From Verrucomicrobiota bacterium (GTDB taxonomy: Bacteria; Verrucomicrobiota; Kiritimatiellia; UBA8416; JABMPJ01), in assembly GCA_018648805.1 (NCBI GenBank), contig JABGQM010000001.1, positions 101,896 through 165,895 of the forward strand: DNA of 64,000 nucleotides. The letters are read 5' to 3'. The notes below the pieces were generated by a model that saw nothing but the letters and a program-made list of their open reading frames with translations, had not been told where the DNA came from and ran no database searches. Of the stretch, positions 9,829-48,322 are shown piece after piece (positions within the stretch are counted from its first letter, which is position 1; each line of letters opens with the position of its first letter). Made by a program: the position numbers and the translations under genes.

Positions 9829-9983
9829 CGCACTTTATTTCTTCGATGCAACAATATCGTTATAGTTTGTGCAAAGAAAGGACTAGAGCGCACGCGGATG
9901 TCGGTCTAGGATATTCGTTTTCATGAAGTGGCATTTTTGGATCTCGTTGATGTAGGGATCTGTAACCAACACATAGGAGCACC

Positions 9984-28793: not shown

Positions 28794-28888
28794 AGAGTGG
28801 CGGCCCGCTCGCCGCTGGACCGCGTTCCGTTCCGTTGGTAGAGTCACGAACAGAGAGTCACGAACACTATGATCGATAGGGGGGAACC

Positions 28889-30067: not shown

Positions 30068-30131
30068 CGGAAGGGGAAACAGATAGCCAATAGGATGCAC
30101 GCGCGTGTGGTGTCACGTAACGGGGCTGAAT

Positions 30132-31244: not shown

Positions 31245-31256
31245 AGGATTGCAGCC

Positions 31257-32744: not shown

Positions 32745-33355
32745 TTCTTACCTCCCTCTTCTGTTTCTGAGACGACTTCTACTTCTACTGTTGCCGGGCC
32801 CAGGATGCGTGTGACGACGACGGGCGTCCCCGACGTGATCGCCACACCACTGTGGGTCCTCGCTTTTACGAATGAAATAACATCACTGACCGCAATCCGC
32901 ACCTCGCCCTGGCCGGCTTCTGGGATATCCAGGTAAACCGTGCCATGTGCGCCCAGAGTTGAGGCAATGCGTTTCGTGCCGGTGTGCGCCAGTTTTGGGA
33001 GCAGCGAAAGGAGCACGGCCACACTGGCCATACCGGCCAGACCCCAGATCGTCGAGATACCCATGGCACGGCCGAGCGCCTCCCCGCGGCTGAGATAGAG
33101 TGCACTGCCCCACGTGAAGAGGGTGCAGAACGTGACGATGGCTCGTATGCTCAGCAGTCTGAATGCCACGACGGTGCCATCCGCATCGGCATCAAACTCA
33201 TCCGCGCCGGCGCCATCCCCCACGTCATCGCCGCTGTCATCATCCAGCCCGATCATCGCTGCAATCAGTTGCCACAGGAAAAACACACTGAAAAATGCCG
33301 CCGCACAGAAGAATCCTCTGTTTATGGTCGTTAGACCGTCCCACCAAGCTGTCAT
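32741..33355 (-). CDS. NfeD-like membrane protein (YqiJ-like; OB-fold C-terminus)
   Basis: TM helices plus C-terminal OB-fold; 4-bp overlap with the downstream flotillin gene, the classic nfeD-flotillin pairing. Confidence 0.7.
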   Translation of the reverse strand: MTAWWDGLTTINRGFFCAAAFFSVFFLWQLIAAMIGLDDDSGDDVGDGAGADEFDADADGTVVAFRLLSIRAIVTFCTLFTWGSALYLSRGEALGRAMGISTIWGLAGMASVAVLLSLLPKLAHTGTKRIASTLGAHGTVYLDIPEAGQGEVRIAVSDVISFVKARTHSGVAITSGTPVVVTRILGPATVEVEVVSETEEGGKK

Positions 33356-33469: not shown

Positions 33470-33931
33470 TCAGGTCTTGCTCTTGTATTCACCACGCTCA
33501 CAGGCCACGACGAAGCTCTCGGCAACCGACTTCAGATCTTCCCATTCACGGCGCAGCTCCTCGGCCTCGCCCCCATCGATCTTGCCGTCGTCACGCATAC
33601 CGGCGGTCACGCTCTGCAGCACATCGGAGAACTCCTTGAGCATCTTCTGCGTGGACTCGAACACCGATCCGGAATATTCCTCATCGGCCTCCGTGTTCTG
33701 TACAAAGAAACCGTCAACTTGACGGCACAACCATTTGATCGGTCCACGGTCACCGGTTAGGTCACACAGCGCCGCGACACGGTCGAGGGGATTCTTGGCC
33801 CCGGACGCATCCGGCGAGTCACTGGCTTCGCACCAGCGATAGACCATGGCGGAGGACAGCTTCATATCAGAGGCCACGGACTTCACCCCGACCCCGCTGA
33901 CCGCCTTCTTCAGAACTTCATAAGATTCCAT
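33470..33931 (-). CDS. phage CII-like HTH transcriptional regulator
   Basis: N-terminal segment GVGVKSVASDMKLSSAMVYRWCEA resembles the lambda CII HTH (…AEAVGVDKSQISRWKRD); at the left edge of the lower-GC island. Confidence 0.45.
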   Translation of the reverse strand: MESYEVLKKAVSGVGVKSVASDMKLSSAMVYRWCEASDSPDASGAKNPLDRVAALCDLTGDRGPIKWLCRQVDGFFVQNTEADEEYSGSVFESTQKMLKEFSDVLQSVTAGMRDDGKIDGGEAEELRREWEDLKSVAESFVVACERGEYKSKT

Positions 33932-34351
33932 CTGACCTCCTCGATGCGCCGCCATAATCGCAGCAGGCCTTTCTGACGGCCATTAGAATCTGCAGGTTTG
34001 TTTATACCGGTGTGCGATGCCCTTGTCCACGCTGTCGCATGACTGATTCTTTTGTCACAGCTCTGCCAGGGAGAGCCGTTTTCCAGAAGATCGCCGAGGC
34101 ACGGCAGACATACGCCATATTACGCTGTGCACGAAGATGTTGCATCAACAGCGACGAAATCCAAAAGGTAGAGCGCCCGATAATGCCCGAAAGTGAATGG
34201 CAAACACGCAAGAAGCGGATTTACGCGAAGTTGAGGGCCTAACCTGACCCACAGGGCCTGTATCCCTGTGGAGCACGTTCATCCGCAAATCCGACCTTCT
34301 CTCTTGCGGTGATTTTGGCTATAACCCCTGCAATTGAAAAGCTGATCTGTT

Positions 34352-37300
34352 TTGAGGTGCATGAAAGGCGTTGGGATGATCGACGATTTGGTACAGGGGT
34401 TCGATGCGGAGCTGTTCTGCACACTTCTCAACGAGAAGTTTGCCGGGACGTTCTCGCCTATCGCGAAACCTATCCCCGTCGACAAGGACTTGCCCTGGAA
34501 AAGCGCGGAACAGCTCGGCATCGTGAAGGCTCTCCCTGATGCAAACGATGTCAATATGCCACTGCTGGTTGTTGCCGCGGAGTTGCCTGAGGGCGAGGAA
34601 CTGCGGGAGCGTAGCAGCCGCATCAAGCAGTTCAAATTCGCCAAGAAGGTGTTGGACTCGGCAATGTCCAGCCCGTCCCCCGGTGTCGACGGGCTGCCCT
34701 CGCAGGGGCTGTTCGTGTTCCACGATGACCAGGGGAACTTCCGCCTCAGCCTTGTCTACGGGAAGCCTGAGGGGACGAAGCTGGTGTGGAGCGCAGTCAA
34801 GCGACTCAGCTTCTACGTCGAAGCCGGAGACGGCAATAAGACCTTCCGTGATCGCGTGGCACTGCCGTGGAGCAGTTTCGACAAGTTGAAAGACGCCTTT
34901 TCAGTCGAGAAACTGACCAAGGAGTTCTACGGCCGACTCTTCAAGTGGTATCAGTGGGCGTTGTCCGATGAGATGGGTGTGACGTATCCCAACGATACGG
35001 AAACAGACGAGGATGACCGACAGATAAGCGAACACATCATCCGGCTGATTACCCGCCTGATGTTCGTCTGGTTTCTGAAACAGAAGCATCTCGTTCCTGA
35101 TGATCTCTTTAACCAAGCCAAGCTGAAGCAGGTCCTCAAGAAGTTCGATCCCGTTTCGGGCGACAACTACTACAGGGCCATCCTTCAGAATCTCTTCTTT
35201 GCCACGCTCAACTCGGAAATCCCCGAGCGCGCGTTCGCCACGCAGACAGGCGACCGAAGCGAGCACTTCGATATCAAGACTCTCTACCGTTACCCCAAGG
35301 AGTTTTCGATTTCAGAGGCTGACGTACTCGAGCTGTTCAAGGGTATTCCATTCCTTAACGGTGGGCTCTTTGAGTGTTTGGACCGGGGTCGAAACTACTA
35401 TGATGGATTCTCTCGTAACCGGAACAAAGCGGCAAAGATACCCAATCGGCTGTTCTTCGATGAGACCGAGGGCATTATTCCGCTTCTGTGTCAGTACAAC
35501 TTCACCGTGGAAGAGAATTCACCTGGCGACGAAGAAGTGGCACTCGATCCCGAATTACTGGGGCAAGTGTTTGAGAACCTCTTGGGTGCTTACAATCCGG
35601 AAACGGAAGTAGCGGCGCGTAAGGCAACGGGTTCGTTCTACACTCCGCGCGAGATTGTCAACTACATGGTGGACGAAAGCCTGATTGCCCACCTCAAGGC
35701 CCGGTGTGGCGAAGAGCAAGAAGAGATGATCCGCAAGCTCTTCGATGATGGAGAGTGCCCTGAGAACAAGGCGTTGTGCGAGCAGCTTGATCAGGCGTTG
35801 GTGACGGCCAAGATATTGGACCCCGCCTGCGGGTCGGGTGCCTTTCCGATGGGCATACTGCTGCGGATGGTTGAGCTTCTGCGTGTTCTGCGGGGAATTC
35901 CGGAGGACAACTCGGTCTATGAACTGAAGTTGCAGTTGATAGAGAATTGTATCTACGGCGCGGATATCCAGTGCATTGCCGTTCAGATTTCAAAACTCCG
36001 GTTCTTCATCTCCCTAGTTTGTGAGCAGAAGAAAGATGACTCCGCCGAGAACTACGGCATCAACTCTCTCCCGAATCTCGAAACGAAATTCGTGGCGGCG
36101 AATTCACTGATCGGTCTGCCGCAGTCTGGCAGAGATATTCTGGATCTGTGTACGGGCGACATTGCCACGCTCAAAGAGCAGCTTTTCGAAGTGCGTCATC
36201 AGCACTTCTCAGCAAAAACATTTCAGGAGAAGAAGGGGCTTCGCCGTGAGGACAAGAAGCTCCGCGGCTCCATCAAGCACACGGTGCGCCATGATGCACA
36301 GCCCGACCGCAGGCACCTTGAGCTCTTGCTCAAGGAGCGGGAGAAGGTGGCAGAGCCGAGATGGGAGGAGATTGCGCCTCCCCCCGCCAAGCAGGAGGAG
36401 ATGTTTGCTGGTTTGGCTCAAGCAGACACTATCCCTGCTGACCTCAAGTACGATGCCAACGAGAAGCAGCGTAAAGCACTCGACGCGGAGATTGCCCGCG
36501 AGAACAAGAGGCAGGATGTTCCGTCCACCGAAATTGATTCGATCGCCGACATGCTTGCCTCTTGGGACCCGTACGACCAGAACACTAGTGCGAGCTTTCT
36601 CGATCCCGAATGGATGTTCAATGTTACCGATGGATTTGACCTGGTCATCGGGAATCCACCGTATGGTATCCGCTACCAACGAACGGCACCGGAGCTTCGT
36701 TTCCCCGGTGCAGACCACGCTCTAAAGGTCCCTGACAGCTACATGGTGTTCATTCTTCGGTGTACGGGCTTTATGGTGAGCGGCGGCTCTATGAGCTTCA
36801 TTGTGCCCAATACATTCTGCGATCTGGAGAATGCTGATGCCTTTCGTCGCCACGTCCTTCGTTCGTTCTCGCTAAGGAATATATGGCAGACCGGATGGGC
36901 TTTTGACTCTGCCGTCGTCGATACGCTGGTGTTCTTCATGAGTAAACGGCCGCCCAAGGCCAGGGCCATGGTCGAGATCCTCATCGACGGGCGTACGTTT
37001 GCTCGCTCACTGCAGAGTTTCCTAAGCAACGAACTGTCAAAGATAGATTACCGTAACGATGCCAGTGACAGGAAATTGCTCGATAAGCTCTCCACTGTTG
37101 GAACACCGCTTAGTAACCTGGCTTCGGTCAAAGCGGGTGTCAAACTCTACGAACGGGGTAAAGGTATTCCACCCCAAGATGCCCGCGTTATTGCCAAAAA
37201 GCCTTATACAGTGAAAGAAACCTGCCCCAAAGGGTGGCGTCCCCTTTTCAGAGGGGGGCATGTGGAACGGTATCGCCTGGCCGTAACCGGCGAATTCGTC

Positions 37301-37909
37301 CATTACGGAGAGTGGCTGGCCGCCCCAAGAGCACCCGAACTATTTGAGGGTCCAAAGATCCTAGTCCGAAGAACAGACGATGTTCTTCGCGCAGCTCTCG
37401 AAGAGCACGGGGGCGTTGCCGTCAACTCATGTCATGTCATCAAAATTCTCGATAGCCGTAGCGAGAGACCCGCCTATGAGTACTTGGCTGCTTGCCTGAA
37501 TTCGCGACTACTTCAATATTTCTTTGAACGGAAGAATCCGCAGATGGTCGGAAAGACATTCGCCGAAATCAAGGTCGTGTATGTGGAGCGGCTTCCTGTT
37601 CGGGTCATTGACTGTGCCAATGAGGTAGAAAGCGAGATACGAGATACGCTGATTGGCCTCGCAAGACGGGTCACCTCCGCGAGGACAACCAATCCTTCTG
37701 CCGATGTATCTCCCCTTGAAGCCGAGATCGACCAACTTGTCTACAAGCTCTATGGTCTGACGACGGATGAGATTGCACTCGTCGAGGAGAGCGCGGCGAC
37801 TGCCGGCAAGGCTTCTGGGCGTTCGAAGAAGACAGCAGCAATGCCGAAGAAGAAGGTGCGCAGGAAGCGGAAGGCGGACCTCCCGCCATCCTTGCCTGGT
37901 TGGGATTGA
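34352..37909 (+). CDS. large N6-adenine DNA methyltransferase, PglX/MmeI/Eco57I family (gamma-class; MmeI-like N-terminal domain + MTase + C-terminal TRD-like region)
   Basis: Motif X GSFYTPREIV, motif I LDPACGSGAFPMG, motif IV VIGNPPYG in gamma-class order; 1185 aa; N-terminus resembles the MmeI/PglX N-domain but no clear PD-(D/E)xK triad; start could also be 34361 or 34376. Confidence 0.85.
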   Translation: MRCMKGVGMIDDLVQGFDAELFCTLLNEKFAGTFSPIAKPIPVDKDLPWKSAEQLGIVKALPDANDVNMPLLVVAAELPEGEELRERSSRIKQFKFAKKVLDSAMSSPSPGVDGLPSQGLFVFHDDQGNFRLSLVYGKPEGTKLVWSAVKRLSFYVEAGDGNKTFRDRVALPWSSFDKLKDAFSVEKLTKEFYGRLFKWYQWALSDEMGVTYPNDTETDEDDRQISEHIIRLITRLMFVWFLKQKHLVPDDLFNQAKLKQVLKKFDPVSGDNYYRAILQNLFFATLNSEIPERAFATQTGDRSEHFDIKTLYRYPKEFSISEADVLELFKGIPFLNGGLFECLDRGRNYYDGFSRNRNKAAKIPNRLFFDETEGIIPLLCQYNFTVEENSPGDEEVALDPELLGQVFENLLGAYNPETEVAARKATGSFYTPREIVNYMVDESLIAHLKARCGEEQEEMIRKLFDDGECPENKALCEQLDQALVTAKILDPACGSGAFPMGILLRMVELLRVLRGIPEDNSVYELKLQLIENCIYGADIQCIAVQISKLRFFISLVCEQKKDDSAENYGINSLPNLETKFVAANSLIGLPQSGRDILDLCTGDIATLKEQLFEVRHQHFSAKTFQEKKGLRREDKKLRGSIKHTVRHDAQPDRRHLELLLKEREKVAEPRWEEIAPPPAKQEEMFAGLAQADTIPADLKYDANEKQRKALDAEIARENKRQDVPSTEIDSIADMLASWDPYDQNTSASFLDPEWMFNVTDGFDLVIGNPPYGIRYQRTAPELRFPGADHALKVPDSYMVFILRCTGFMVSGGSMSFIVPNTFCDLENADAFRRHVLRSFSLRNIWQTGWAFDSAVVDTLVFFMSKRPPKARAMVEILIDGRTFARSLQSFLSNELSKIDYRNDASDRKLLDKLSTVGTPLSNLASVKAGVKLYERGKGIPPQDARVIAKKPYTVKETCPKGWRPLFRGGHVERYRLAVTGEFVHYGEWLAAPRAPELFEGPKILVRRTDDVLRAALEEHGGVAVNSCHVIKILDSRSERPAYEYLAACLNSRLLQYFFERKNPQMVGKTFAEIKVVYVERLPVRVIDCANEVESEIRDTLIGLARRVTSARTTNPSADVSPLEAEIDQLVYKLYGLTTDEIALVEESAATAGKASGRSKKTAAMPKKKVRRKRKADLPPSLPGWD

Positions 37910-37937
37910 TAGTAAGAGCTGAAAGCTGAAAGATAAA

Positions 37938-39614
37938 ATGGTGCACACGCAGGAAGAGCTAAAGCTGATTCTGGAGAACCTGATTGCTTCATGGGAGAAC
38001 GAGGTCGTTGAGTTCAAACGGGCTGGGGATGACTACAGCACGGACAAGATCGGCAAGTATCTCTCCGCTTTGGCGAATGAGGCCAATCTGCGGGGCATCG
38101 AACGCGCATGGCTGGTTTTCGGCGTCGACGACAAGTCGCGCCAGGTGGTTGGCTCAGACTACCGCCCCGAAACGGAACGTTTGCAGTCAATCAAGATGCA
38201 GATGGCGGAAAATACGGAGCCGAGTGTCACCTTCCGAAATGTGCATGAAGCCGTGTTTGTCGAAGGTCGGGTTGTTATGTTTGAGATTCCGGCCGCCCCC
38301 CGGGGAATTCCTATTGCATGGAAAGGCCATTGCTATGCGCGCGCCGGGGAGAGTCTGGTTGCGCTGGGCTTGGACAAGCAGGATGAAATCCGGAATCAAA
38401 CGGCGGCCACGGATTGGTCCGCTCAGCCCGTTCCCAGCGCGACAGTTGACCATCTCGATCCGCAAGCTGTCGCAACGGCTCGTCGTTCATTTACACAGAA
38501 ATACGCTAATCGGTTTGACAAGGAAACGGTAGATGGATGGTCCACATCGACGTTTCTTGACCGTGCCCGGTTGACTCAGGGCGGAGCGATTACCCGTACT
38601 GCGCTTCTGTTGTTGGGTAAGGCGGAGGCAGCACACCTTTTGTCCCCGCATCCGGTGCAGCTGACATGGAAGCTGCAGGGGGCTGAACGCGCCTATGAAC
38701 ATTTTGGGCCTCCCTTTCTGTTAAGCTCCAGTGCGTTGTATCAGCGTATCCGCAATGTGCAGGTCCGGGTGTTACCGGATGATGAGCTTTTGCCGGTTGA
38801 AGTTTCAAAATATGATCAGCGCGTGGTTCTTGAAGCCCTGCATAACTGCATTGTTCACCAGGACTATGCGCGCAATGGGAGGGTCATTGTCACCGAGATG
38901 CTGGATAAGCTTGTGTTTGAGAATGAGGGTGATTTCTTCGAGGGGAAGCCCGAGGACTATATTGCGGGTGAAAAGACCCCGAGTCGCTACCGGAATCCAT
39001 TTCTTGCCCAGGCGATGGCGGAGCTGAACATGATCGACACCATGGGCTATGGTATCCACGATATGCATATGGGACAGGTGAAACGCTTCTTCCCGCTCCC
39101 GGACTACGACTTGGGCAAGCCCAATTCGGTGCGAGTGATCCTCTACGGAAAGGTGGTCGATCCTGCCTATACACGACTGCTTATCCGGAACACCGATCTG
39201 CCTCTGGCCGATGTGTTGGCCTTGGATCGGGTCCAGAAAGAACTCCCTGTAGAGGATGCCACTGTTAGGCGATTACGTAGAGCGGGCATGATCGAAGGTC
39301 GGCGGCCGAACCTGCATATTGCCGCAAAATTGGCAGAAGCAACGGGAACAAGAGCTGCATATATAAAGACTAGAAGGCAGGACGATGCCTACTACGCCAA
39401 ACTCGTTACGGATTTCTTGAGACAATATGGCACAGCTACCCGTAAGGATATGGATGATCTGCTGCTGAACAAGATCAGCGACGGGCTAACGCACCAGCAG
39501 AAAAGGAACAAGGTACACAACCTTCTTGGCAAATGGAAAACTCAGGGCTTGATTGAGAACCAGGGCGGACGGGGTAATGGAGCTCTGTACGCTTTGATAA
39601 GTGATGACGAATAA
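37938..39614 (+). CDS. AlbA_2 (divergent AAA/Schlafen-like DNA-binding) + HATPase_c_4 + C-terminal HTH protein (RecG-C-terminal-like; RM-associated accessory)
   Basis: N-terminal ENEVVEFKRAGDD…LVFGVDD (AlbA_2 signature); HNCIVHQDY (HATPase_c_4 signature); 29 bp downstream of the MTase. Confidence 0.75.
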   Translation: MVHTQEELKLILENLIASWENEVVEFKRAGDDYSTDKIGKYLSALANEANLRGIERAWLVFGVDDKSRQVVGSDYRPETERLQSIKMQMAENTEPSVTFRNVHEAVFVEGRVVMFEIPAAPRGIPIAWKGHCYARAGESLVALGLDKQDEIRNQTAATDWSAQPVPSATVDHLDPQAVATARRSFTQKYANRFDKETVDGWSTSTFLDRARLTQGGAITRTALLLLGKAEAAHLLSPHPVQLTWKLQGAERAYEHFGPPFLLSSSALYQRIRNVQVRVLPDDELLPVEVSKYDQRVVLEALHNCIVHQDYARNGRVIVTEMLDKLVFENEGDFFEGKPEDYIAGEKTPSRYRNPFLAQAMAELNMIDTMGYGIHDMHMGQVKRFFPLPDYDLGKPNSVRVILYGKVVDPAYTRLLIRNTDLPLADVLALDRVQKELPVEDATVRRLRRAGMIEGRRPNLHIAAKLAEATGTRAAYIKTRRQDDAYYAKLVTDFLRQYGTATRKDMDDLLLNKISDGLTHQQKRNKVHNLLGKWKTQGLIENQGGRGNGALYALISDDE

Positions 39615-39842
39615 TCAAACGAACGGCCGCATCTATCAAACGAGAATCAAACGGATTGGCGTAAGTGCTTATGTATCGGATGGTTGTGGTTTGCTTGATG
39701 GAGCGAACTAAGGTGTGTGCGATAGCAAATGGGGGCGGTTTACACGGATGCAGTATGCGCCTATAAGCTGGGAGCGGATTGCCCTACACAGAAGTACCGG
39801 CTCACGGCCAAAGGCCGCGAAGTCTAGGAGAGGAAGAGCCCG

Positions 39843-42800
39843 ATGCTGATCACGAATATAAGCGAAGAGAACAGCTTGCTGACGCGGTTGGATCATCTAA
39901 TCGCGGAGAGCGAGGAGATGCGGGTTTTAGTGGGGTTCTTCTATTTCTGGGGAATCAGTGCCCTGCATGGCGGCTTGAGCAAGAACAAGGATTTTAAGGT
40001 TAAGATACTGGTGGGGCTGCAAGCGGAGGAGCATGCGGGGAAGATTGTTGAATTTGCGGGCGAACAGAGCCCGGAGATGACGGATGAAGAGCGGCGTTCG
40101 GGCTTCCTTGCAAGCCTGCGGTCAGTGATGCGAAGCCGCGAGGTTGATACGCAGAAATACTATGAACGAGTCTCGTTGTTTGTCGACCTGGTGAAGTCGG
40201 GGCAGATTGAAATCAAGAAGCCGCGCGAACCGAACCACGCGAAGCTGTATCACTATACACTGAAGAAGGGGCTGGCGCAGACACTGGACCGCAAGTACTG
40301 CTGGATTACGGGTAGCAGCAACATGACACGGCCCGGGCTGCTGGAGCAGAACGAGCTGAATGTGCAGCTTCTGGACTTTGGCGGCGAGGAGGCGAAGCAG
40401 TTCTTTGATGCACTGTGGAAGACCGCCGTGCCTTTGACCGACGATCCGGCCACCAAACAACGAATCATTGAAATGGTGGATGGCGATGAATCGCTCTTGG
40501 CCTCTGTTACTCCGTTCGAAGCATACGCGCTAGTCCTGAAGAACTACTTGGAACATCGCGATCTTTCCGACAGAACTCCGTCAATCGAGCGCGTTCTTGC
40601 TGAGCCGAAGGATGACGATGATGACTGCAAATATCGACCCTTGAGTTTTCAGGTGGATGCGGTCAATCAGGCCCTTTCGATCTTGCGTGAATACAATGGC
40701 GTGATCATTGCGGATGTGGTGGGTCTGGGTAAATCCGTGATGGGTAGCGTACTGGGCCGGGTGAATGGAAAACGGGGCATTGTGATTGCGCCACCGGGAT
40801 TGGTGGGAGATCAGAGCACAGGAACCGGCTGGTGGGGGTATCTGGAGGATTTCGGGCTGCATGACTGGCGCGCTGTTTCGCGCGGGAAACTGGATGAGGT
40901 ACTGGATCTCGTCAACCGCCAACGCGATTTCGAACTGGTTGTGGTAGACGAAGCACACTATTTTCGAAATCAGGACAGCGAGGATTATCACTATCTTTCG
41001 CAGATTTGCCGTGGCAAACAGGTTGTGTTGATGACGGCAACGCCCTACAGCAATCGCCCGAGCGATATGCTCTCACTTCTCAAACTGTTTACCCCCGCCC
41101 GACAATCGCTCTTGACTCCCGACGGGAATCTGGAAGCGCTGTTTCGAGGGTATCAGATTCAATACAACCGGGTTGACTACGTGTTGAAGCACCTTGAAAG
41201 TCCCGACCGTGCGGACAAAGTTGAGAGTCACTTGCGGAAGCTCGGCATATCGCTCGATGTCACGCAGGGGAACTACAAGAAGATCCGCCATGAGGTCAAG
41301 GCGCTCTGCAAAGGTTTGGCGCAGGAAATCCGGCAGGTGGTTGAACCGGTGATGATCCGCCGCAACCGGCTGGATCTGAAAGGCGATCCGGATTACGCGG
41401 GAGAAGTTGGCCAGAACCTGCCGACGATGCACGATCCGGTAGAGCAGTTCTACGAGCTGTCGCCAGAACAGAGCGAGTTCTACGATTTGGTCATCAGTGA
41501 GTATTTCGGCGAAGACAGCGCGTTTACGGGTGCGATTTATCAGCCCGGCGCCTATATGCCCGACCGGGCAGATGTGGACGCGGAGGCCGAAGAAGACGTG
41601 GGCGACTCTCGAGCGCTGGCCAATACCCAGCAGCGTAACATGTACAAGTTCATCCGCCGCTTGCTCGTGCGGCGTTTCGAAAGCTCATTCGGAGCTTTTG
41701 CCAACACGCTGGACAACCTGATTCGTGTGCACAGGAACGTAAGGCGGTTGGCCGTGCCCGCCCCGCTTGGCCGGGGGTTAATCGTCTTGGACCGTACGTT
41801 GATGGACAAGTTGGCGAATATGGAGAACGCATCTGACGAGGAAATCACCGAGATACTTCAGCGTCAGGAAGATCTGTTGAGTCCCGATGAGCTGGAAAAG
41901 CAACAGCGCAACCTACAAGTGTTCAGGGTTTCAGAGGATTTCGACGACGCAGGACGGGAGCAGTTCAATGCGGACCTACGAGCAGATATTCAGTTGCTGG
42001 AAAAGGTGAAAGCAGAAGTCGAGGCGCTCGACCTGATCGCCGATGATCCGAAGGCCCGAAAACTGATCGACGAGATTGAGGCGGTCCTTGCCGGGGAGCA
42101 CCCCGAACTCATCAGTGTTTCCAACGAACCACAACGGAAGATCCTCGTCTTCAGCGAGTTCGGTGACACTGTGAATCACCTGAAGGTGTATCTTGATGCC
42201 AAGTTCCCCGATCAGGTGTTGACCGTCCGCTCGCTGAGCAAAGGAGTTGCAAAAACGGTCCGCCAGAATTTTGATGGAGCCTGCAATCCTGGGTTGCAGC
42301 AAGATCAATACAAGGTCCTACTCGCAACCGATAAGATGTCCGAGGGATTGAACCTGAATCGCGCCGGATTGGTTATTAATTATGATATTCCGTGGAATCC
42401 GACGCGGGTGATCCAGAGAGTTGGGCGTATCAACAGAATCGGCACCAAAGTGTTTGATGATCTCTATCTGTTCAACTTCTTTCCGACCGAACAAGGCAAG
42501 GATCAGCACAATGTTCGGCAAATCGCGTCCAACAAGATGTTCATGATTCATGCATCAATCGGTGAAGATGCGAAGATTTTCGATACGGATGAGGAGCCGA
42601 CCCCGGCGGGGCTGTTCGAGAAGCTGAGCAGGAATCCCGACGAACTCGAAGAAGAGAGCTTTCTCACGCAGGCGAAGCGCGAGTGGGCTGAGATCCGCAA
42701 GAAGCATCCAGAGGTTGTCGAGAAGATCGGCAAGCTGCCAGGTCGCGTCAAGACCACGCAGCAGAGATCACCGGAAGGGGTCTACATGTTTGCTCGCAAG

Positions 42801-43280
42801 GGAATGACTCTGTTTGCCCTATGGCAACAGGTTGCGGGTGAAGAAGCAGAGATCGCTCACCTTTCGCTGCATGATGCCATAACCGCGATTAGATGTCCGT
42901 TTGATGCCAGGCCGGGCAAGCAGGTTGCGGACACGTTTTGGCCAAGCTATGAGGCTCTACAGGAAAGCCTGACCGATCGGCGGCATGCAAATCCACCGGG
43001 AGCAACGTCCCTAATCACCAAAGCACGCAACGTGCTTGCGACAGCGATTGGCAGCGGATCTGGTGGCTCTTTCGTGAAGATACTGCTGGACGATCTCCAG
43101 AATTGCGGCACTCTTTCAGATCGGACCTTGCGGAAGCTCATTGATGCCTCACGGGACAGCAAGGCGTTTGCGAAACTGATCAAGCAGCTTGAAACTGAAA
43201 TGGGGGCGGATTACCTGAATGCCATCAAGACGCGGATGCCACCCAATGAGGTGGTCATAGCGTTTGAGCACCAACTGTAA
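39843..43280 (+). CDS. PLD-family nuclease :: SNF2/SF2 helicase fusion protein
   Basis: N-terminal HxK…GSxN PLD motif (NHAKLYHY…ITGSSNMT); Walker A DVVGLGKSVMG, DEAH box VVVDEAHYFRN, helicase-C motif VI QRVGRINRIG; ~300-aa C-terminal extension. Confidence 0.85.
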   Translation: MLITNISEENSLLTRLDHLIAESEEMRVLVGFFYFWGISALHGGLSKNKDFKVKILVGLQAEEHAGKIVEFAGEQSPEMTDEERRSGFLASLRSVMRSREVDTQKYYERVSLFVDLVKSGQIEIKKPREPNHAKLYHYTLKKGLAQTLDRKYCWITGSSNMTRPGLLEQNELNVQLLDFGGEEAKQFFDALWKTAVPLTDDPATKQRIIEMVDGDESLLASVTPFEAYALVLKNYLEHRDLSDRTPSIERVLAEPKDDDDDCKYRPLSFQVDAVNQALSILREYNGVIIADVVGLGKSVMGSVLGRVNGKRGIVIAPPGLVGDQSTGTGWWGYLEDFGLHDWRAVSRGKLDEVLDLVNRQRDFELVVVDEAHYFRNQDSEDYHYLSQICRGKQVVLMTATPYSNRPSDMLSLLKLFTPARQSLLTPDGNLEALFRGYQIQYNRVDYVLKHLESPDRADKVESHLRKLGISLDVTQGNYKKIRHEVKALCKGLAQEIRQVVEPVMIRRNRLDLKGDPDYAGEVGQNLPTMHDPVEQFYELSPEQSEFYDLVISEYFGEDSAFTGAIYQPGAYMPDRADVDAEAEEDVGDSRALANTQQRNMYKFIRRLLVRRFESSFGAFANTLDNLIRVHRNVRRLAVPAPLGRGLIVLDRTLMDKLANMENASDEEITEILQRQEDLLSPDELEKQQRNLQVFRVSEDFDDAGREQFNADLRADIQLLEKVKAEVEALDLIADDPKARKLIDEIEAVLAGEHPELISVSNEPQRKILVFSEFGDTVNHLKVYLDAKFPDQVLTVRSLSKGVAKTVRQNFDGACNPGLQQDQYKVLLATDKMSEGLNLNRAGLVINYDIPWNPTRVIQRVGRINRIGTKVFDDLYLFNFFPTEQGKDQHNVRQIASNKMFMIHASIGEDAKIFDTDEEPTPAGLFEKLSRNPDELEEESFLTQAKREWAEIRKKHPEVVEKIGKLPGRVKTTQQRSPEGVYMFARKGMTLFALWQQVAGEEAEIAHLSLHDAITAIRCPFDARPGKQVADTFWPSYEALQESLTDRRHANPPGATSLITKARNVLATAIGSGSGGSFVKILLDDLQNCGTLSDRTLRKLIDASRDSKAFAKLIKQLETEMGADYLNAIKTRMPPNEVVIAFEHQL

Positions 43281-43308
43281 CAGGTCGTAAGTAACGAGGA
43301 GGGGAAGA

Positions 43309-43818
43309 ATGAGCAAGACAGGCAAATGCAAGAAGGCGGATCAGAGCCTAAAAGCCCTGGATGCGCAGGTCGCTGCGGTTACGGAGCATCTGATCTGTGT
43401 GTACGATGTTCTGGCCGGGATATGCAAAAAGAAACCCAAAGCTAAGTCACACACAAGGGTTCAGGAATTGAAGCAGCTTCCGGTAAAGCAAGGTGGGCTG
43501 GATTTCTATATCCAGTTTGCCCTCGTAGCAGATGATGCGGAAATAGAAGGCGCAATTGTTTACGGAGCATCCCGAGAACCTTGTTATCCAAATTCTCTTT
43601 GGCCGAATCCCGACAAGAAGCAACAGGAACGACCTCTAGCGTGTTTCTTTCTTGATTCCCTCGGAAAGGTCAGCATCAAAGGTAAATTGCAGGATGAGTG
43701 GTGGCTTACTGGCACAGAAGCAGATACCCAGGCAGCAGTTGAAGAAATGCACTATCGCGTCCTTGATATGATTTGGCGTGATGCATTGAACTGGACAAAC
43801 GAGCCACTCTTGCCCTAG
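43309..43818 (+). CDS. hypothetical protein (169 aa) in the island operon
   Basis: RBS GGAGGGG; no recognisable motif; AT-richer composition than the genome. Confidence 0.5.
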   Translation: MSKTGKCKKADQSLKALDAQVAAVTEHLICVYDVLAGICKKKPKAKSHTRVQELKQLPVKQGGLDFYIQFALVADDAEIEGAIVYGASREPCYPNSLWPNPDKKQQERPLACFFLDSLGKVSIKGKLQDEWWLTGTEADTQAAVEEMHYRVLDMIWRDALNWTNEPLLP

Positions 43819-43831
43819 CGGAGAAGGATTC

Positions 43832-45409
43832 ATGGAAAAGCTAACAGTACTGTCCCTCCTAAATAAATATCAGACATGGGTCAGAAATGGCGACATACAG
43901 TTTCTACCGAAAGCCTCTGAAGCCCAGAAAACCATCCTTGATCTTCTCGCCGAGCTTATTCCTGATTTCGAATTGGCAGGCGCGCAGGAGGGGGGGCTGA
44001 GCAAGAACCTTGACTGGTATAAAACACACGCGAAAGGCCGGAAGCTGTGGCAGGAACTTGTTAGCGCCTCTCTGAATAGCATAGACCCAGATTCCAAGGG
44101 AAATTCCACGCTGTTCGACTATCTAGAGAAAGCGACTCTCTTTGAGGATGTCTTGTATGGTCTTGAGGAGTACTACCGCGATCATACGCTTCACTCAATT
44201 TGGGTCTATTTGATAGGGGAATACATGCTCAGGGATCACCTCTCGGATGTCCGCAGTAACCTGAACTGGTATCTTTACAACGATTTTGAGAGTGAGAAGG
44301 CGTCCTACAAGCGGGATCTGATGCGCTACGCTCGTAAGAAGGAGCAGGATATTCGTGCTCAGGTAAACGAGAAACAAGATGCTGTTTGGTGCATCATGGC
44401 CCTTTGTCATGATTTAGGATACTCCCCCGCCAAGTTGAACAAGATCAATGATCGTGTCAGGGACGTTCTGAAGTTCTTTGATCTGCCGGAATTCAAACAA
44501 GTGGGGTATTCGCTGGATCTTGAGCAGCAGTTTCTCGTATCGCAAGTCCTTGAAATGATGGCTATGGATGTGCGCATCGTTCCGAGCGAGAATTACAGAG
44601 ATCCAGAAGTTGATACCGACGAAAAAGTGAAAATCAGAGGGTATCGTGATGACGCAACATACTGGCGCCTCTGCCGTGCTCTCGAGAAGCGACAGCATGG
44701 GATTCTAAGTTCCTATCTCCTTTACAAACTTGTCGGGTTGTTCGCCGAGTCGTGGGTTCGCGGGACCGGGGAAGAATGGGGACTTGAGGATTCTGAAGTG
44801 GTGGAGAATATCATTCGAGGTGACATTCTTTTTGCTATTGCGCAACATGAGTTCGATTATGCCCACATGAATCAGGTGGGAAGCCTCGCGGAAATCTTGT
44901 TCATTGCTGACGAGCTTGAGGAGTTTTCCCGGTATGGACGGCAACTTCTATCGCGGGAATACTCAGATACCACGGCTGAGACCGCCATAGAATTCACACC
45001 ACAAAACCCGAAACAGGGCGAGGATGTGGAGATCAATATTCTTTATGATTATGACACATCGCGAGGTCTGGCTGATTACTTCAACTTTTTCTGGCGAAAG
45101 GCGCAACGCCTCTGCACCGTCTATTCGCTTGATCTGGAAAAGGGTAGCGAGAGGTACTGTACAATCAACCGAGTCAAGATAACCGTCGCACGCGAGCGGC
45201 ACGAATTCTTCTTTGAGCTTCGCAAGGGAGCAGAGAACAAGAACAAGGGCTTCTTGCCTAGGACGAAGATTGGCCCTGTAGACTATGAAGAGGGAGAGTA
45301 CCTCCTCTCGTGCACGGATGACCGAATAGATGTGCTGACGAAGAACGGAAAAGTGAACCTGAAGGATTGGTGCAAGGATGCGGACAAACAGTACTCGTCA
45401 GCATCTTGA
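43832..45409 (+). CDS. putative HD-domain phosphohydrolase-like protein
   Basis: Candidate HD-superfamily motifs RDHTLHS and MALCHDLGY (cf. LLHDIGK); spacing longer than canonical; lowest-GC gene of the island. Confidence 0.4.
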   Translation: MEKLTVLSLLNKYQTWVRNGDIQFLPKASEAQKTILDLLAELIPDFELAGAQEGGLSKNLDWYKTHAKGRKLWQELVSASLNSIDPDSKGNSTLFDYLEKATLFEDVLYGLEEYYRDHTLHSIWVYLIGEYMLRDHLSDVRSNLNWYLYNDFESEKASYKRDLMRYARKKEQDIRAQVNEKQDAVWCIMALCHDLGYSPAKLNKINDRVRDVLKFFDLPEFKQVGYSLDLEQQFLVSQVLEMMAMDVRIVPSENYRDPEVDTDEKVKIRGYRDDATYWRLCRALEKRQHGILSSYLLYKLVGLFAESWVRGTGEEWGLEDSEVVENIIRGDILFAIAQHEFDYAHMNQVGSLAEILFIADELEEFSRYGRQLLSREYSDTTAETAIEFTPQNPKQGEDVEINILYDYDTSRGLADYFNFFWRKAQRLCTVYSLDLEKGSERYCTINRVKITVARERHEFFFELRKGAENKNKGFLPRTKIGPVDYEEGEYLLSCTDDRIDVLTKNGKVNLKDWCKDADKQYSSAS

Positions 45410-45424
45410 ATAGGTGAGATCTTT

Positions 45425-45802
45425 ATGGCGGGGAAAGTATACGGCTACGAGCTGATTCTGGATCTTCACGGTTGTGATGTGTCTACATTCAACCGCGAGA
45501 GTCTTGATAGCTATTTTGAGAAGCTCTGCAAGGCGATCAAGATGGTGAAGTGTGAGCGGTATTTCTGGGATGACGTCGGCGTCCCTAAGGAGGAGCAGCA
45601 AACTTCCCCGCATACGAAAGGCACGTCGGCGGTGCAGTTCATCCTGACTAGCACTATTGTGATTCATACACTGGAACTGATGGAAGCGGCCTACATAAAT
45701 ATTTTCTCCTGCAAAGAGTATGATGCAGGAGTGGCGGAGCAAATAACACGAGAGTGGTTTGGTGCAGAAGAATGCAAGACGCACTTTATCGAGAGGATCT
45801 GA
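45425..45802 (+). CDS. SpeH-like pyruvoyl-dependent S-adenosylmethionine decarboxylase family protein (small AdoMetDC fold)
   Basis: Colinear with bacterial SpeH: GYELILDLHGCD ~ GRHVISELWGCD; FILTSTIVIHTLELMEAAYINIFSCK ~ [26 protein letters not shown]; processing Ser retained but the flanking ES-H is T-S-T. Confidence 0.6.
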   Translation: MAGKVYGYELILDLHGCDVSTFNRESLDSYFEKLCKAIKMVKCERYFWDDVGVPKEEQQTSPHTKGTSAVQFILTSTIVIHTLELMEAAYINIFSCKEYDAGVAEQITREWFGAEECKTHFIERI

Positions 45803-45803
45803 C

Positions 45804-47180
45804 ATGCAATTGGTAGAGAAAGAGATACTGATCCCGGCACGCGATAACCAAGATGGACTTCTTGAGTATCTTGGCCAGGCGGTGGCCGCTGGCCTGAATG
45901 GCGATGAGATTCCCGTACGTGTTGCCGTTACGCGGACGGACAGTGAAGGATATCACTGTGAAGTGGGCATTCTCTCTGGAGTTGATCACTCCAAAGCCGA
46001 GAGTATTGAGTCGATGTTTGACCTTCGCCGCCGTGAATATGAAAACAACCAGGATTTCAATGCGGCGCTATTGGTTCCCACTGGAATAGGGGCGGAGATC
46101 GGTGGTCATTCGGGAGACGCTGGGGCCGTTGCACGGCTGATGGCCGCGAGCTGTGACAATCTCATTACGCATCCCAATGTCGTCAACGCCGCCGACATCA
46201 ACGAGTTGCCGGAGAACGGTCTCTATGTTGAAGGAAGTGTCATTTCCCGGCTGATGATGGGCACTGTCGGTTTACAGAAGGTCCGGTCAAATCGCGTGAT
46301 GATGATTGTGGATCAACACACTGACAAGATGTTCCATGAACTGTCCATCAACTCGGCCTCTGCCGCCCGTGCGGCCTTGGGACTAGACTGTCCTCTCGTA
46401 GTGAAGATGGAAGACCGTATTCTGATGCGTGCGTTGTTTTCAAAGTCAGGACGCGCTGTTGGCCAAATCGAGTTTCTGGAGTACCTATGCGAGGTGCTGG
46501 AAGAGCACCGGTCTGAATATGATGCCGTTGCCCTCACCTCGTTGATCAGTGTGCCAGAGCGTTTCCATAGCGACTACTTCGATAAGGACTCTGACATGGC
46601 TGTCAACCCGTGGGGCGGTGTTGAAGCCATGCTGACGCACGCTATCTCGATGCTATTTAACGTGCCATCAGCACATTCCCCCATGATGACATCGTCCGAA
46701 GTTATGAATCTGGATGTTGGCATCGTGGATCCCCGGAAATCGGCAGAGGCCGTTTCATCCACATATCTGCACTGTATTCTCAAGGGGCTGCACCGCAGCC
46801 CGCGGGTTGTGCCAGACATACCAATCCATGGCGATCCGGGGCTGTTGACTGTTGCGAACGTATCTTGTCTCGTGATTCCAGATGGGTGTGTTGGGTTGCC
46901 AACACTTGCGGCACTTGAGCAGGGCATCCCTGTTATTGCCGTCAAGGAGAACAAGAACTGCATGCGGAACCGGCTGGAAGATCTGCCCTTCGCACCAGGC
47001 AAACTCTTCATCGTTGAAAACTACCTTGAGGCCGCTGGCATCATGACGGCTCTAAGAGCAGGTGTTGCAGTGGACACTGTCCGCCGCCCCTTGGCGGATA
47101 CTGTGGTTGTGAACGCTCGCCGCCAGCACCATACAGAGTTTGCTCCGGCCGCAACCGAAGAGCGCACCTCGAGGGTGTGA
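45804..47180 (+). CDS. conserved hypothetical protein (458 aa), translationally coupled to the SpeH-like gene
   Basis: TGA-C-ATG coupling with the upstream gene; glycine-rich segment VPTGIGAEIGGHSGDAGAVARLMA and C-terminal VIPDGCVGLPTLAAL suggest Rossmann/SLOG-like folds (speculative). Confidence 0.5.
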   Translation: MQLVEKEILIPARDNQDGLLEYLGQAVAAGLNGDEIPVRVAVTRTDSEGYHCEVGILSGVDHSKAESIESMFDLRRREYENNQDFNAALLVPTGIGAEIGGHSGDAGAVARLMAASCDNLITHPNVVNAADINELPENGLYVEGSVISRLMMGTVGLQKVRSNRVMMIVDQHTDKMFHELSINSASAARAALGLDCPLVVKMEDRILMRALFSKSGRAVGQIEFLEYLCEVLEEHRSEYDAVALTSLISVPERFHSDYFDKDSDMAVNPWGGVEAMLTHAISMLFNVPSAHSPMMTSSEVMNLDVGIVDPRKSAEAVSSTYLHCILKGLHRSPRVVPDIPIHGDPGLLTVANVSCLVIPDGCVGLPTLAALEQGIPVIAVKENKNCMRNRLEDLPFAPGKLFIVENYLEAAGIMTALRAGVAVDTVRRPLADTVVVNARRQHHTEFAPAATEERTSRV

Positions 47181-48187
47181 TGAACAGGACGTTGGGATAC
47201 ATTCTTCTGTTGGGGGCTCTGCTCTCTCTCACTCCCGGCGTTTGCTCGGCTCGGAACCCGATCAGTGATTTCATGGCATCCATACGATATCGTCGGGCCT
47301 ATCAGCATGCCTGCGATGCGCATGCCTGTAAGCAGTCCGAGGACTACGATGGTGCCATCAAGAGTGCCTCGAAAGCGATCAAGGCGAACCGCGGGTATCG
47401 ATATGCGTACGAACTCCGTGCCGTGTGTTACTCGCACAAGGGCAACTTCAAGTTGGCTTTGGCCGACTGTAACACGGCCGCCGGTCTCAAGCCTTCCACC
47501 TCCTATATCTACACGCTGCGGGCAAGGGTGCATTCTGCCCTTGGCAACGACATGGCGTGTATTGCCGACTGTGACCAGGCGATCTCTCTAGACCCCAAGA
47601 GCGCTTATAGTTACGGGCTGCGCGGCTGGGTCAAGATGGGGCAGGGCCATCATGAAACGGCCATCAAGGATTTCGATACGAGCATCTCTCTGCAGGATGA
47701 CGAGGGCAAGACCTACTTCTGGCGGGCACGCGCCCTGGCGGCCACCGACAACTTCGAGGCTGCCTTGAAGGATCTTGAGTCGGGCGCCGCGCTGGACGGC
47801 TGGAACCATCACGCCTACCTGATGCGGGCACGGGTCCATGCCGACATGGGGTCCATCGCGAAAGCCATTGAGGATTGTGACCGGGCCATGGCGGCGGCAG
47901 AGGATTCACCAGAGCCCCTCAACACCAAAGCCTATATGCTCTGCACCATGCCCGATGAGAAATGGCGCAACGGTACGGAGGCATTGAAGTTGGCGCAACG
48001 CGCCTTGGAAATCTGCGGGGAGCGCCCCGCGCATATTCTGGATACCCTCGCCTGTGCCTACGCTGAGCTGGGCCGGTTTGACGAGGCCATCGCGGTTCAG
48101 CAGGAGGCCGTGAAGAAGCGTCCGGAGCACGCCGTTCTGCTTGAGCACATGGAGGCCTTCAAAGCACGCCGTCCCTGGCGGGAGTAG
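47180..48187 (+). CDS. secreted TPR-repeat protein
   Basis: Signal peptide then Cys-rich N-terminus and multiple TPR-like repeats; start overlaps the upstream stop (TGATG). Confidence 0.6.
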   Translation: MNRTLGYILLLGALLSLTPGVCSARNPISDFMASIRYRRAYQHACDAHACKQSEDYDGAIKSASKAIKANRGYRYAYELRAVCYSHKGNFKLALADCNTAAGLKPSTSYIYTLRARVHSALGNDMACIADCDQAISLDPKSAYSYGLRGWVKMGQGHHETAIKDFDTSISLQDDEGKTYFWRARALAATDNFEAALKDLESGAALDGWNHHAYLMRARVHADMGSIAKAIEDCDRAMAAAEDSPEPLNTKAYMLCTMPDEKWRNGTEALKLAQRALEICGERPAHILDTLACAYAELGRFDEAIAVQQEAVKKRPEHAVLLEHMEAFKARRPWRE

Positions 48188-48322
48188 GGAATTGAACCGC
48201 CTTGTGGGGCATTCATTCACTTCTTCCAGAGCTTCAAGCCCCATTGTTCTCACGTGGAGTTTCGCGTTGGAATCCCATTCTGTTCTGTAACTGCCTATCG
48301 CCATAATGGTAGGAAGATCGGC

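Follow-up and report, generated by a model that had tools for sequence, protein, structure and literature searches.

A probable composite defense-island segment in a Verrucomicrobiota genome: a methyltransferase–helicase module followed by a separate 4-gene decarboxylase/DUF3326 cassette

We analyzed a 64,000-nucleotide stretch of DNA (hereafter, the window) from the genome of Verrucomicrobiota bacterium (GenBank assembly GCA_018648805.1, contig JABGQM010000001.1, forward-strand positions 101,896–165,895), focusing on a locus at window positions 34352–47180 for which an earlier reading of the sequence (hereafter, the original prediction) had proposed a single undescribed multigene defense system. 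The locus encodes, in order, a large methyltransferase, a Schlafen-like protein, a helicase with an N-terminal HKD domain, a small protein, an HD-like protein, a SpeD-like decarboxylase, and a DUF3326 protein (Table 1). We refer to the first 3 genes as module 1 and to the last 4 as the cassette. The original prediction had counted 8 codirectional, tightly spaced genes; their strand, spacing, and positions are exactly as it described, but only 7 open reading frames (ORFs), all on the + strand, lie within the interval, and the eighth must be the TPR gene that follows. The intergenic gaps, in gene order, are 28, 228, 28, 13, 15, and 1 bp, and the true start of the methyltransferase gene is likely the ATG at 34363 or 34377. 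The locus forms a lower-GC island, as had been proposed: GC content is 0.60 and 0.635 in the flanks, 0.54 in the genes of module 1, and 0.49 in the first 3 cassette genes, and it is back up to 0.597 in the TPR gene.

Table 1. Positions of the genes and sequence features of the locus, in window coordinates.
Feature	Positions	Strand	Product (aa)	Remarks
Module 1 (METHYLTRANSFERASE + Schlafen-like gene + HKD-SNF2 helicase)	34352–43280	+		
Methyltransferase gene	34352–37909	+	1185	Module 1; predicted N6-adenine, gamma-class
Schlafen/AlbA_2-HATPase_c_4 gene	37938–39614	+	558	Auxiliary embedded in module 1
HKD-SNF2 helicase gene	39843–43280	+	1145	Module 1
Small-protein gene	43309–43818	+	169	Cassette gene 1
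HD-like gene	43832–45409	+	525	Cassette gene 2
SpeD-like decarboxylase gene	45425–45802	+	125	Cassette gene 3
DUF3326 gene	45759/45804–47180	+	473/458	Cassette gene 4; length by start chosen
TPR gene	47177–48187	+		Context only; TPR families (Pfam); 4-bp overlap with the end of the DUF3326 gene
Phage CII-like (Phage_CP76) regulator gene	33470–33955	-		Context only; Pfam E = 1.4e-9; upstream island edge, divergent
Repeat motif, copy 1	39727–39751	+		AAATGGGGGCGG(T/A)TTAC, 17–25 nt; 116 nt before the HKD-SNF2 start codon
Repeat motif, copy 2	43198–43222	+		Within the 3′-terminal part of the helicase gene; the first cassette gene starts 111 nt downstream

All motifs that the original prediction quoted for the methyltransferase and the helicase are present in the sequences. 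The methyltransferase carries GSFYTP at residue 427, DPACGSG at 490, and NPPY at 768, and it matches the Pfam families Eco57I (E = 1.7e-20), TaqI_C (2.3e-16), and N6_Mtase (1.8e-9) as well as the PADLOC model REase_MTase_IIG (5e-56); no PD...(D/E)xK nuclease pattern was found in its sequence. By these matches, it is a gamma-class, Type IIG/PglX-like N6-adenine enzyme whose target-recognition domain is TaqI-like. Two N-terminal domains of MmeI, DUF7149 and DUF7814, which occur at L003 and L009 among the other loci studied here, were not detected in it, and no domain was assigned to its N-terminal 330 aa. The second gene product is the AlbA_2/HATPase_c_4 protein that had been proposed (Pfam SLFN_AlbA_2, 1.2e-16; HATPase_c_4, a minimal GHKL/histidine kinase-like domain, 2.1e-10), and proteins of this architecture are widespread auxiliary effectors of BREX and BREX-related (BR) loci (PMC12839542). 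The helicase region of the third protein is supported by Pfam SNF2-rel_dom (1.8e-9) and Helicase_C (3.9e-16) and by the motifs GLGKS at 294, DEAH at 369, and QRVGRINR at 858. The nuclease half of the PLD::SNF2 fusion claimed for it has the expected motifs, HAK at 132 and GSSN at 157, but its PLDc_2 match is weak (E = 0.0033) and fails the Pfam cut-off. PADLOC models for BrxHI/II, HmaA, DrmD, DpdE, and “HKD+Snf2” (C3a139) match the protein only partially, and every NCBIfam match falls far below its cut-off. We consider the protein a putative fusion in which a single-HKD nuclease domain of the PLD family precedes an SNF2/SF2 helicase, and it would act as a translocase-nuclease effector.

Genes for PglZ, BrxC, DrmA, DrmB, DUF499, and DUF3780 were not found among the locus genes, the flanks, and the window ORFs of at least 800 aa (Pfam was run on all of these, and PADLOC and NCBIfam on the 9 locus genes only); for DUF3780 in particular, neither the 169-aa protein nor any other small neighbor has a Pfam match. 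The absence of the first 4, on which the original prediction had relied, was thereby confirmed, and no defense library assigned the locus as a whole to a described system. With these core genes missing, module 1 belongs to neither BREX nor DISARM.

Relatives of module 1 occur in other genomes. At locus L088 (Parabacteroides distasonis NZ_OY725763.1, 20.0–28.5 kb), an ortholog of the HKD-SNF2 helicase (33% identity) is flanked by a SLFN_AlbA_2/HATPase_c_4 gene and by an Eco57I-type methylase gene whose product is 42% identical to that of the window; the order, HTH, Schlafen-HATPase_c_4, HKD-SNF2, and Eco57I-type methylase, differs from that in the window. At L087 (Allomeiothermus silvanus pMESIL02), an ortholog with 39% identity follows an Eco57I-type methylase gene. 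Neither locus has a downstream cassette, and DUF499 and DUF3780 are absent from both. Because the same DUF499-less gene sets are found there, the arrangement in the window is not an assembly accident, and the recurrence in Parabacteroides indicates that the DUF499-less trio recurs across phyla. At L088, the trio is followed by genes for a 304-aa hypothetical protein, a TIR protein, a second hypothetical protein, and an AAA_11/AAA_12 helicase.

The 4 cassette proteins (43309–47180) produced zero matches to PADLOC-DB v2.0.0 at E ≤ 0.01, and the 169-aa and 525-aa proteins have no Pfam, PADLOC, or NCBIfam match. The small protein, 169 aa in the window and 94 to 286 aa elsewhere, conserves only a C-terminal motif, MHYRxLDxIWxDALNWxNExLLP; its identity to orthologs (21% to 54%) lies below that of the cassette enzymes (50% to 90%), which indicates that it evolves fast. 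Its gene precedes the HD-like gene at L001, L003, L005, L006, L007, L009, L010, L011, L079, L082, L083, and L128. At L013, the usual slot of the small-protein gene, immediately upstream of the HD-like gene, is occupied by a gene for a PRMT-like S-adenosylmethionine (SAM) methyltransferase (PRMT_C, PrmA; positions 9054–9974). Identification of the 169-aa protein as DUF3780 was considered and rejected, given that it has no Pfam match and travels with the cassette beside Type III and Type IIG systems.

The 525-aa HD-like protein has 279 homologs, the best 120 of which are 46% to 79% identical to it over the full length, with invariant H...HD...D residues (H118, H193-D194, and D360). In its structural model, the fold resembles those of HD/phosphodiesterase (PDE) enzymes, with the metal-binding residues placed on an all-alpha HD fold, and a beta-rich domain forms the C-terminus. 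Searches against the PDB with the single sequence and with a profile returned nothing, and the model had no match in BFVD, a library of viral structures. Thus, the earlier HD-domain call has no Pfam support but is backed by the invariant residues and the predicted fold, and the protein is probably a metal-dependent phosphohydrolase of the HD/phosphodiesterase superfamily. The SpeD-like protein matches Pfam AdoMet_dc (PF02675; 54.2 bits against a cut-off of 25, E = 2e-14), and its invariant Ser76, His81, and Cys96 align with Ser63, His68, and Cys83 of the T. maritima SAM decarboxylase (AdoMetDC). Its cleavage site is Thr-Ser-Thr and not Glu-Ser-His, and its score against the SAM-decarboxylase equivalog TIGR03330 (NCBIfam) is 26.4 bits against a cut-off of 75.65. 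From the sequence, we assign it as a homolog of class-1b pyruvoyl-dependent decarboxylases with the AdoMetDC/SpeD fold. Homology to AdoMetDC, as originally proposed, therefore stands, but since characterized SpeD homologs include arginine and ornithine decarboxylases (PMC10407285), the label “SpeH-like” does not imply that the substrate is SAM. Judging from the retained catalytic residues and the PDE-like fold, both the HD-like and the SpeD-like protein look active.

The last cassette protein, listed originally as a 458-aa unknown, is identified by Pfam as a DUF3326 member (PF11805; 294.6 bits against a cut-off of 25, E = 1.2e-87). It represents a long form, with an N-terminal extension of approximately 85 aa ahead of the DUF3326 core, and is 66% to 86% identical across phyla. 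Searches for a solved relative with the single sequence and with profiles of 16 and 44 sequences gave chance-level matches only. The DUF3326 family comprises approximately 1,200 sequence clusters and, according to its Pfam description, is also found in cyanobacteria and plants.

We inspected 18 cassette loci by hand, the window and 17 others, and at every orthologous locus with downstream sequence, the HD-like gene is followed by an AdoMet_dc gene (123–138 aa) and then by a DUF3326 gene (approximately 456–473 aa), the latter always lying directly after the SpeD-like gene, in agreement with the coupling that had been proposed for the 2 genes. A small gene of low conservation lies ahead of the HD-like gene at most of the loci. 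What surrounds the cassette varies from one locus to another. The neighbors are Type III Res/Mod genes at L001; MmeI-like Type IIG enzymes at L003, L009, and L083; an N6_N4 methylase-Mrr fusion 7 bp downstream at L012; an HSDR_N-methylase with an S subunit 19 bp downstream at L017; HerA, a Type I-like R subunit, and an M-S fusion at L085; a SacI-like endonuclease, a C5 methylase, an insertion sequence (IS) element, an integrase, a caspase, and an HNH protein at L127; Dnd-associated genes, a DUF4062-HATPase_c_4 gene, and AbiEii at L079; DndCDE, a resolvase, and a transposase at L082; a HerA-like giant protein and an HhH-GPD protein at L006; and IS110 and a helicase-PLD gene at L128. The neighbors at L006 and L128 are thus limited to IS elements and other mobile or defense-like genes, and at L005, L013, and L084, nothing suggestive was seen. 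In total, restriction–modification (RM) or Dnd genes lie within approximately 3 genes of the cassette at 12 of the 17 informative loci (the window counted), usually on the same strand and often at a distance of 7 to 70 bp. Even the nearest relatives of the window cassette (L079, L006, and L001, with proteins 77% to 90% identical) have entirely different neighbors; at L079, the decarboxylase and the DUF3326 protein are 90% and 86% identical, respectively, to those of the window. These differences among the closest cassettes indicate a mobile unit that has repeatedly been placed in or against DNA-modification-based defense loci, and the same survey shows that the cassette is not specific to the methylase/helicase pair.

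The 2 halves of the locus thus dissociate in both directions, the methylase/helicase pair being found without the cassette at L087 and L088 and the cassette being found beside unrelated systems, and we have high confidence that the architecture is one of 2 separable modules. It is accordingly very improbable that the methyltransferase, the Schlafen-like protein, the HKD-SNF2 protein, and the 4 downstream proteins form one integrated machine of 7 or 8 genes, as had been proposed. Such a machine would account for the common strand, for the gaps of 13 to 28 bp (save one of 228 bp), and for the lack of a convincing + strand terminator before approximately 49.1 kb, and at L011 the cassette again has a methylase gene, a gene for a 224-aa protein, and an SNF2 gene directly upstream. 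However, the L011 helicase has no HKD domain and aligns with that of the window over approximately 200 residues only, at 29% identity, and GC content differs between the halves. A further link between them is a 17-nt motif, AAATGGGGGCGG(T/A)TTAC, which stands at a similar distance upstream of the helicase gene and of the cassette. It has exactly 2 matches in the window, against 0.03 expected, and the 2 copies are identical at 21 of 25 positions when extended; no copy was found in any of the other loci compared. The motif may be a shared operator or internal promoter, and the pair hints at separate but coregulated promoters for the helicase and the cassette. A scan for promoters and terminators found fewer sites than in shuffled sequence and is therefore uninformative on operon structure.

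If the cassette is a unit of its own, it could be an ordinary operon for the biosynthesis of polyamines or other amines that lies in a variable region by chance and has no immune role. SpeD homologs are decarboxylases of polyamine pathways (PMC10407285 and PMC9992855), and the DUF3326 protein PavB and the decarboxylase PavA are both required for N-(5-aminopentyl)cadaverine and the polyamine pavettamine (preprint). Moreover, the SpeD-like/DUF3326 pair occurs apart from the rest of the cassette. At L080, it lacks an HD-like gene and is followed by a DUF350 gene and genes without annotation, an apparently ordinary chromosomal setting. At L081 (7482–11383), it lies near integrases, again without an HD-like gene, directly after genes for an AAA_15/AAA_21 ABC-type ATPase and an unannotated 252-aa protein, which may be alternative partners replacing the small and HD-like genes. 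In P0243 (562 aa), AdoMet_dc and DUF3326 are naturally fused in a single polypeptide.

The pair is also present in viruses. In 35 of 38 DUF3326-bearing IMG/VR contigs (L089–L126), a SpeD-like gene adjoins the DUF3326 gene or lies within approximately 2 kb of it, while the other neighbors vary; examples are L101 (7603–8981) and L095 (7623–9269). Two IMG/VR contigs that we checked carry genes for DNA polymerase, ribonucleotide reductase, ligase, topoisomerase, and exonuclease, and on the phage contig L101 the pair sits between the ribonucleotide reductase and DNA ligase genes. Three viral loci (L122–L124) have a GNAT acetyltransferase gene inserted between the SpeD-like and DUF3326 genes, which fits amine metabolism. 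DUF3326 had no match in GenBank (cultured) phages, the HD-like protein was absent from the viral contigs and GenBank phages searched, and a search of plasmids for the latter yielded one distant paralog only. Occurring alone, fused, and on viral contigs, the pair looks like a self-sufficient 2-step enzyme unit acting on common metabolites, and it may represent an undescribed viral auxiliary metabolic gene pair. The most economical reading, by analogy with the pavettamine enzymes and with carboxyspermidine synthesis by a dehydrogenase and a decarboxylase, is that it carries out amine (polyamine-type) synthesis by condensation and decarboxylation.

Although the phage gene pair, the non-defense setting of L080, and the loci without defense neighbors (L005, L013, and L084) would suit an amine operon, we consider that explanation unlikely for the cassette as a whole. 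RM or Dnd genes stand close by at 12 of the 17 informative loci, and several cassette loci are flanked by IS elements or integrases; the patchy spread over phyla at 50% to 80% identity, together with the low GC content, points to horizontal transfer; and neither a fast-evolving small partner nor an HD/PDE-fold enzyme is expected in a polyamine pathway. The locus survey thus refutes, in its simple form, the notion of an unrelated metabolic operon, in keeping with the original prediction.

More remote still is the alternative that the cassette is a SAM-pool module, in which the SpeD-like enzyme decarboxylates SAM and thereby tunes or protects the cofactor supply of neighboring SAM-dependent restriction systems. 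One possibility within it, based on the way in which phage SAM lyases reportedly act, is that the decarboxylated SAM produced could not be cleaved by such a lyase. An AdoMetDC fold in which the catalytic Ser, His, and Cys are retained is compatible with such a role, and most of the neighbor classes (Type I-like, IIG, III, and BR-like) use or require SAM. However, the low TIGR03330 score and the Thr-Ser-Thr cleavage site are not those of a SAM decarboxylase, several characterized SpeD homologs have other substrates, Dnd genes and a Type II C5 methylase system are also among the neighbors, and neither DUF3326 nor the HD-like enzyme is given a role. We regard this explanation as highly improbable.

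Distant paralogs of the HD-like protein (24% to 29% identity, E-values mostly 1e-15 to 1e-45) provide a different perspective; the SpeD-like/DUF3326 pair was never found beside them. At 19 loci, the paralog accompanies a radical SAM/SPASM gene and often a DUF2284 gene as well. At approximately 8 loci (L048, L049, L051, L060, L061, L069, L073, and L086), it accompanies some or all of the following: 5-hmdU DNA kinase, thymidylate synthase-like, radical SAM, Nmad2, ThsB-TIR-like, and TIR-SLOG genes. Through these loci, the HD-like family is linked to 5-hmdU DNA kinase clusters of bacteria, a setting in which it is not a known component. The trio of radical SAM/SPASM, HD-like paralog, and DUF2284 was recorded at L035, L045, L052–L056, L063, L065, L066, L068, L071, and L072, in Lachnospiraceae, other Bacillota, Planctomycetota (Phycisphaerales), and Promethearchaeota (Asgard archaea). 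At L022, L040, and L047, the HD-like gene is duplicated in tandem. The L086 cluster (Parabacteroides distasonis NZ_OY725812.1, 45.6–50.8 kb) lies beside an integrase.

The cassette might accordingly be a DNA or nucleotide hypermodification module, its HD/PDE enzyme acting on an activated nucleotide or base, the enzyme pair making or trimming an appended amine, and the whole cooperating with, or replacing, the neighboring DNA-modification enzymes. A precedent is provided by thymidine hypermodification, of which the genes beside the paralogs include hallmarks and whose pathways attach amino acids or putrescine to phosphorylated 5-hmdU before decarboxylating them (PMC8989533); the neighbors of the HD-like paralogs and the DNA-modifying neighbors of the cassette agree with it, and so does the position of the pair on L101. 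Against it, neither the locus genes nor the flanks encode a 5-hmdU DNA kinase, a dUMP hydroxymethylase, or an aGPT-Pplase (amino acid:DNA transferase, AADT); the enzyme pair usually stands alone, which suggests a free metabolite; the methylases beside the cassette are of unrelated classes; and some paralogs have radical SAM and DUF2284 genes as their sole companions, in settings unrelated to DNA. In our assessment, a hypermodification role is quite unlikely.

Taken together, the observations are best explained, in our view by a slight preference over all else, by a composite defense-island segment in which module 1 is followed by a separate mobile cassette of 4 genes. The defense-type island of the original prediction is thus retained but its unity as one 8-gene system is not. 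In module 1, by analogy with the literature on its families, the methyltransferase would mark self DNA, the HKD-SNF2 protein, as the presumed restriction effector, would translocate on and cut unmarked DNA, and the Schlafen/AlbA_2-GHKL protein would be an auxiliary backup effector, probably of the RNase type. For the cassette, the gene context makes a defense or RM-accessory role reasonably likely, and the cassette matches no described defense system in the libraries and literature searched. As to its chemistry, we tentatively adopt the working hypothesis that an amine-forming enzyme pair is coupled to a hydrolase of nucleotides or phosphodiesters and to a fast-evolving partner. The SpeD-like/DUF3326 unit would condense and decarboxylate an amino acid-derived substrate to a polyamine-type amine; in cells, as opposed to the viral contigs and phage genomes searched, the pair is joined to the HD/PDE-fold hydrolase and, at most loci, to the small partner; and the substrate that the HD-like and small proteins work on, or detect, would be a nucleotide or a phosphodiester. 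Because it recurs in apparent operons with unrelated DNA-modification-based defense systems, the cassette would be an accessory or stand-alone immunity module coupling amine-metabolite chemistry to nucleotide hydrolysis. A more specific and quite unlikely version, which would make the cassette a partner of a new sort for DNA-modification-based immunity, is that the HD/PDE enzyme and the decarboxylase/DUF3326 pair attach an aminoalkyl (polyamine-type) group to DNA, a nucleotide, or a SAM-derived cofactor, or process such a group there, adding a second chemical mark or signal to the neighboring RM or Dnd system, whereas phages would use the pair for the opposite purpose. The presence of the same enzyme pair in phage replication modules and in host defense islands suggests an arms race over one metabolite.

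Several points weigh against the composite reading or against parts of it. The tight spacing and shared strand leave room for a coupling between module 1 and the cassette, as do the 17-nt motif upstream of both the helicase gene and the cassette and the second case, at L011, of a methylase and an SNF2 gene directly upstream of a cassette. Three or 4 cassette loci (L005, L013, L084, and perhaps L128) have no defense neighbor, the small protein is missing at L012, L013, and L017, and the enzyme pair is also found in seemingly ordinary chromosomal surroundings (L080). The model of the DUF3326 protein, with a pLDDT of 56, displays only a generic alpha/beta flavodoxin/Rossmann-like domain and is too poor for fold assignment. 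In module 1, the putative nuclease domain depends on motifs and a sub-threshold Pfam match, and DUF499 and DUF3780, 2 features that define the Type-2 BR systems compared below, are lacking.

Should the cassette prove to serve immunity or to assist RM systems, the chemistry of pyruvoyl decarboxylases and DUF3326, so far tied only to polyamine synthesis and with DUF3326 otherwise uncharacterized, would enter prokaryotic defense. DUF3326 also gains a testable context, as the obligate partner of a SpeD-like decarboxylase to which it is sometimes fused, in a pair carried by phages.

Around the locus, no tRNA, integrase, or flanking repeats bounding the island were found in the window. The TPR gene and the following 2-oxoacid_dh-like gene were considered as cassette members and rejected, as neither is kept at any other cassette locus; no counterpart of the TPR gene follows the cassette anywhere else. 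The second of the 2 genes (within 47177–49156) encodes a 300-aa protein whose similarity to 2-oxoacid dehydrogenase acyltransferases is confined to their C-terminal catalytic part. Directly upstream of the island, a minus-strand cluster (28844–33355) encodes a 346-aa protein without annotation, a TerB-domain protein, an SPFH/Band_7 protein, and a 204-aa protein without annotation, and is followed by the CII-like regulator. The cluster and the regulator may be another stress or defense module, or may include the regulator of the island.

Comparison of the cassette with known systems provided partial parallels. Our literature searches on the cassette proteins in a defense context, and on any connection of DUF3326, AdoMetDC, pyruvoyl, or decarboxylated SAM to phage defense, returned nothing relevant. 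In the literature searched, the only AdoMetDC-like fold reported in a defense candidate is that of HEC-07 (Payne et al. 2024 preprint), which is embedded in Hma systems. As in the window, the gene is embedded in or attached to a system of Hma/RM type, but HEC-07 has another architecture, being a single protein that combines an AdoMetDC-like domain with a thioredoxin-like domain and a RelE RNase, with no DUF3326 and no HD-like partner. Another parallel is with PavA/PavB of the pavettamine system and the CASDH/CASDC logic of carboxyspermidine synthesis. The shared feature is the genetic pairing of a decarboxylase and a DUF3326 protein, and in the pavettamine system both PavA and PavB are needed to join 2 amine units into a triamine. 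The cassette differs in that its decarboxylase has the pyruvoyl SpeD fold and is not pyridoxal phosphate-dependent, its DUF3326 protein, being of the long form, has an additional domain at the N-terminus, and no Rieske or JmjC partner is present. With phage thymidine-hypermodification clusters (5-HMUDK, aGPT-Pplase/AADT, radical SAM, and decarboxylase), the similarity lies in the neighbors of the HD-like paralogs (5-hmdU DNA kinase, thymidylate synthase-like, and radical SAM genes) and in the combination of a decarboxylase with an amine-handling enzyme, whereas no kinase, hydroxymethylase, or transferase was found among the locus genes and flanks in the window, and no HD/PDE-fold component of these pathways is described in PMC8989533.

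For module 1, the original prediction had pointed to BREX type 3 and DISARM class 1. Like BREX type 3, the window pairs a large gamma-class adenine methyltransferase with an SNF2-type helicase, but it lacks PglZ, BrxC, BrxA, and BrxB, and the helicase has an HKD domain, with no RapA-like Tudor or C-terminal domains detected. The methyltransferase reaches only 33 to 56 bits against the NCBIfam PglX-family models BREX_1/2/5/6_MTaseX, whose cut-offs are 400 to 900. Like DISARM class 1, the window combines SNF2 helicase, PLD-family nuclease, and adenine methylase activities in one locus, but DrmA and DrmB (DUF1998) are missing and the PLD domain is fused to the helicase and is not a separate gene. 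The DrmD equivalog NF038317 gave 131 bits against a cut-off of 610, DrmMI gave a partial match only (2.6e-13), and the sole DrmA match (2e-14) was partial and fell on the helicase already assigned, with no DUF1998 found. Both assignments were rejected on account of the missing core genes and the sub-threshold scores.

Module 1 is closer to the Type-2 BR systems, described as “Hma-like,” DUF499-centered, and RM-like (Rakesh & Krishnan, NAR 2026; PMC12839542). These consist of a DUF499 ATPase, an N6-methyltransferase, DUF3780 (a standalone gene in 98% of members), and a Swi2/Snf2 helicase in which an HKD endonuclease replaces the N-terminal Tudor domain, and their loci often carry a Schlafen-minimal histidine kinase-wHTH auxiliary (PMC12839542). 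Module 1 likewise pairs an N6-adenine methyltransferase with a Swi2/Snf2 helicase that has an N-terminal HKD and no Tudor domain, and a Schlafen-minimal histidine kinase gene is embedded in it as an auxiliary effector. The differences are that the DUF499 AAA+ ATPase and DUF3780 are absent and that the PADLOC HmaA model aligns only with the C-terminal helicase region of the window protein. Our reading is therefore that module 1 is a minimal version of the ATP-dependent, RM-like BR/Hma systems that does without DUF499. The HKD-SNF2 and methylase core of BREX-related systems can thus occur in the absence of the DUF499 ATPase by which such systems are defined, and surveys anchored on DUF499 would undercount BR-like systems.

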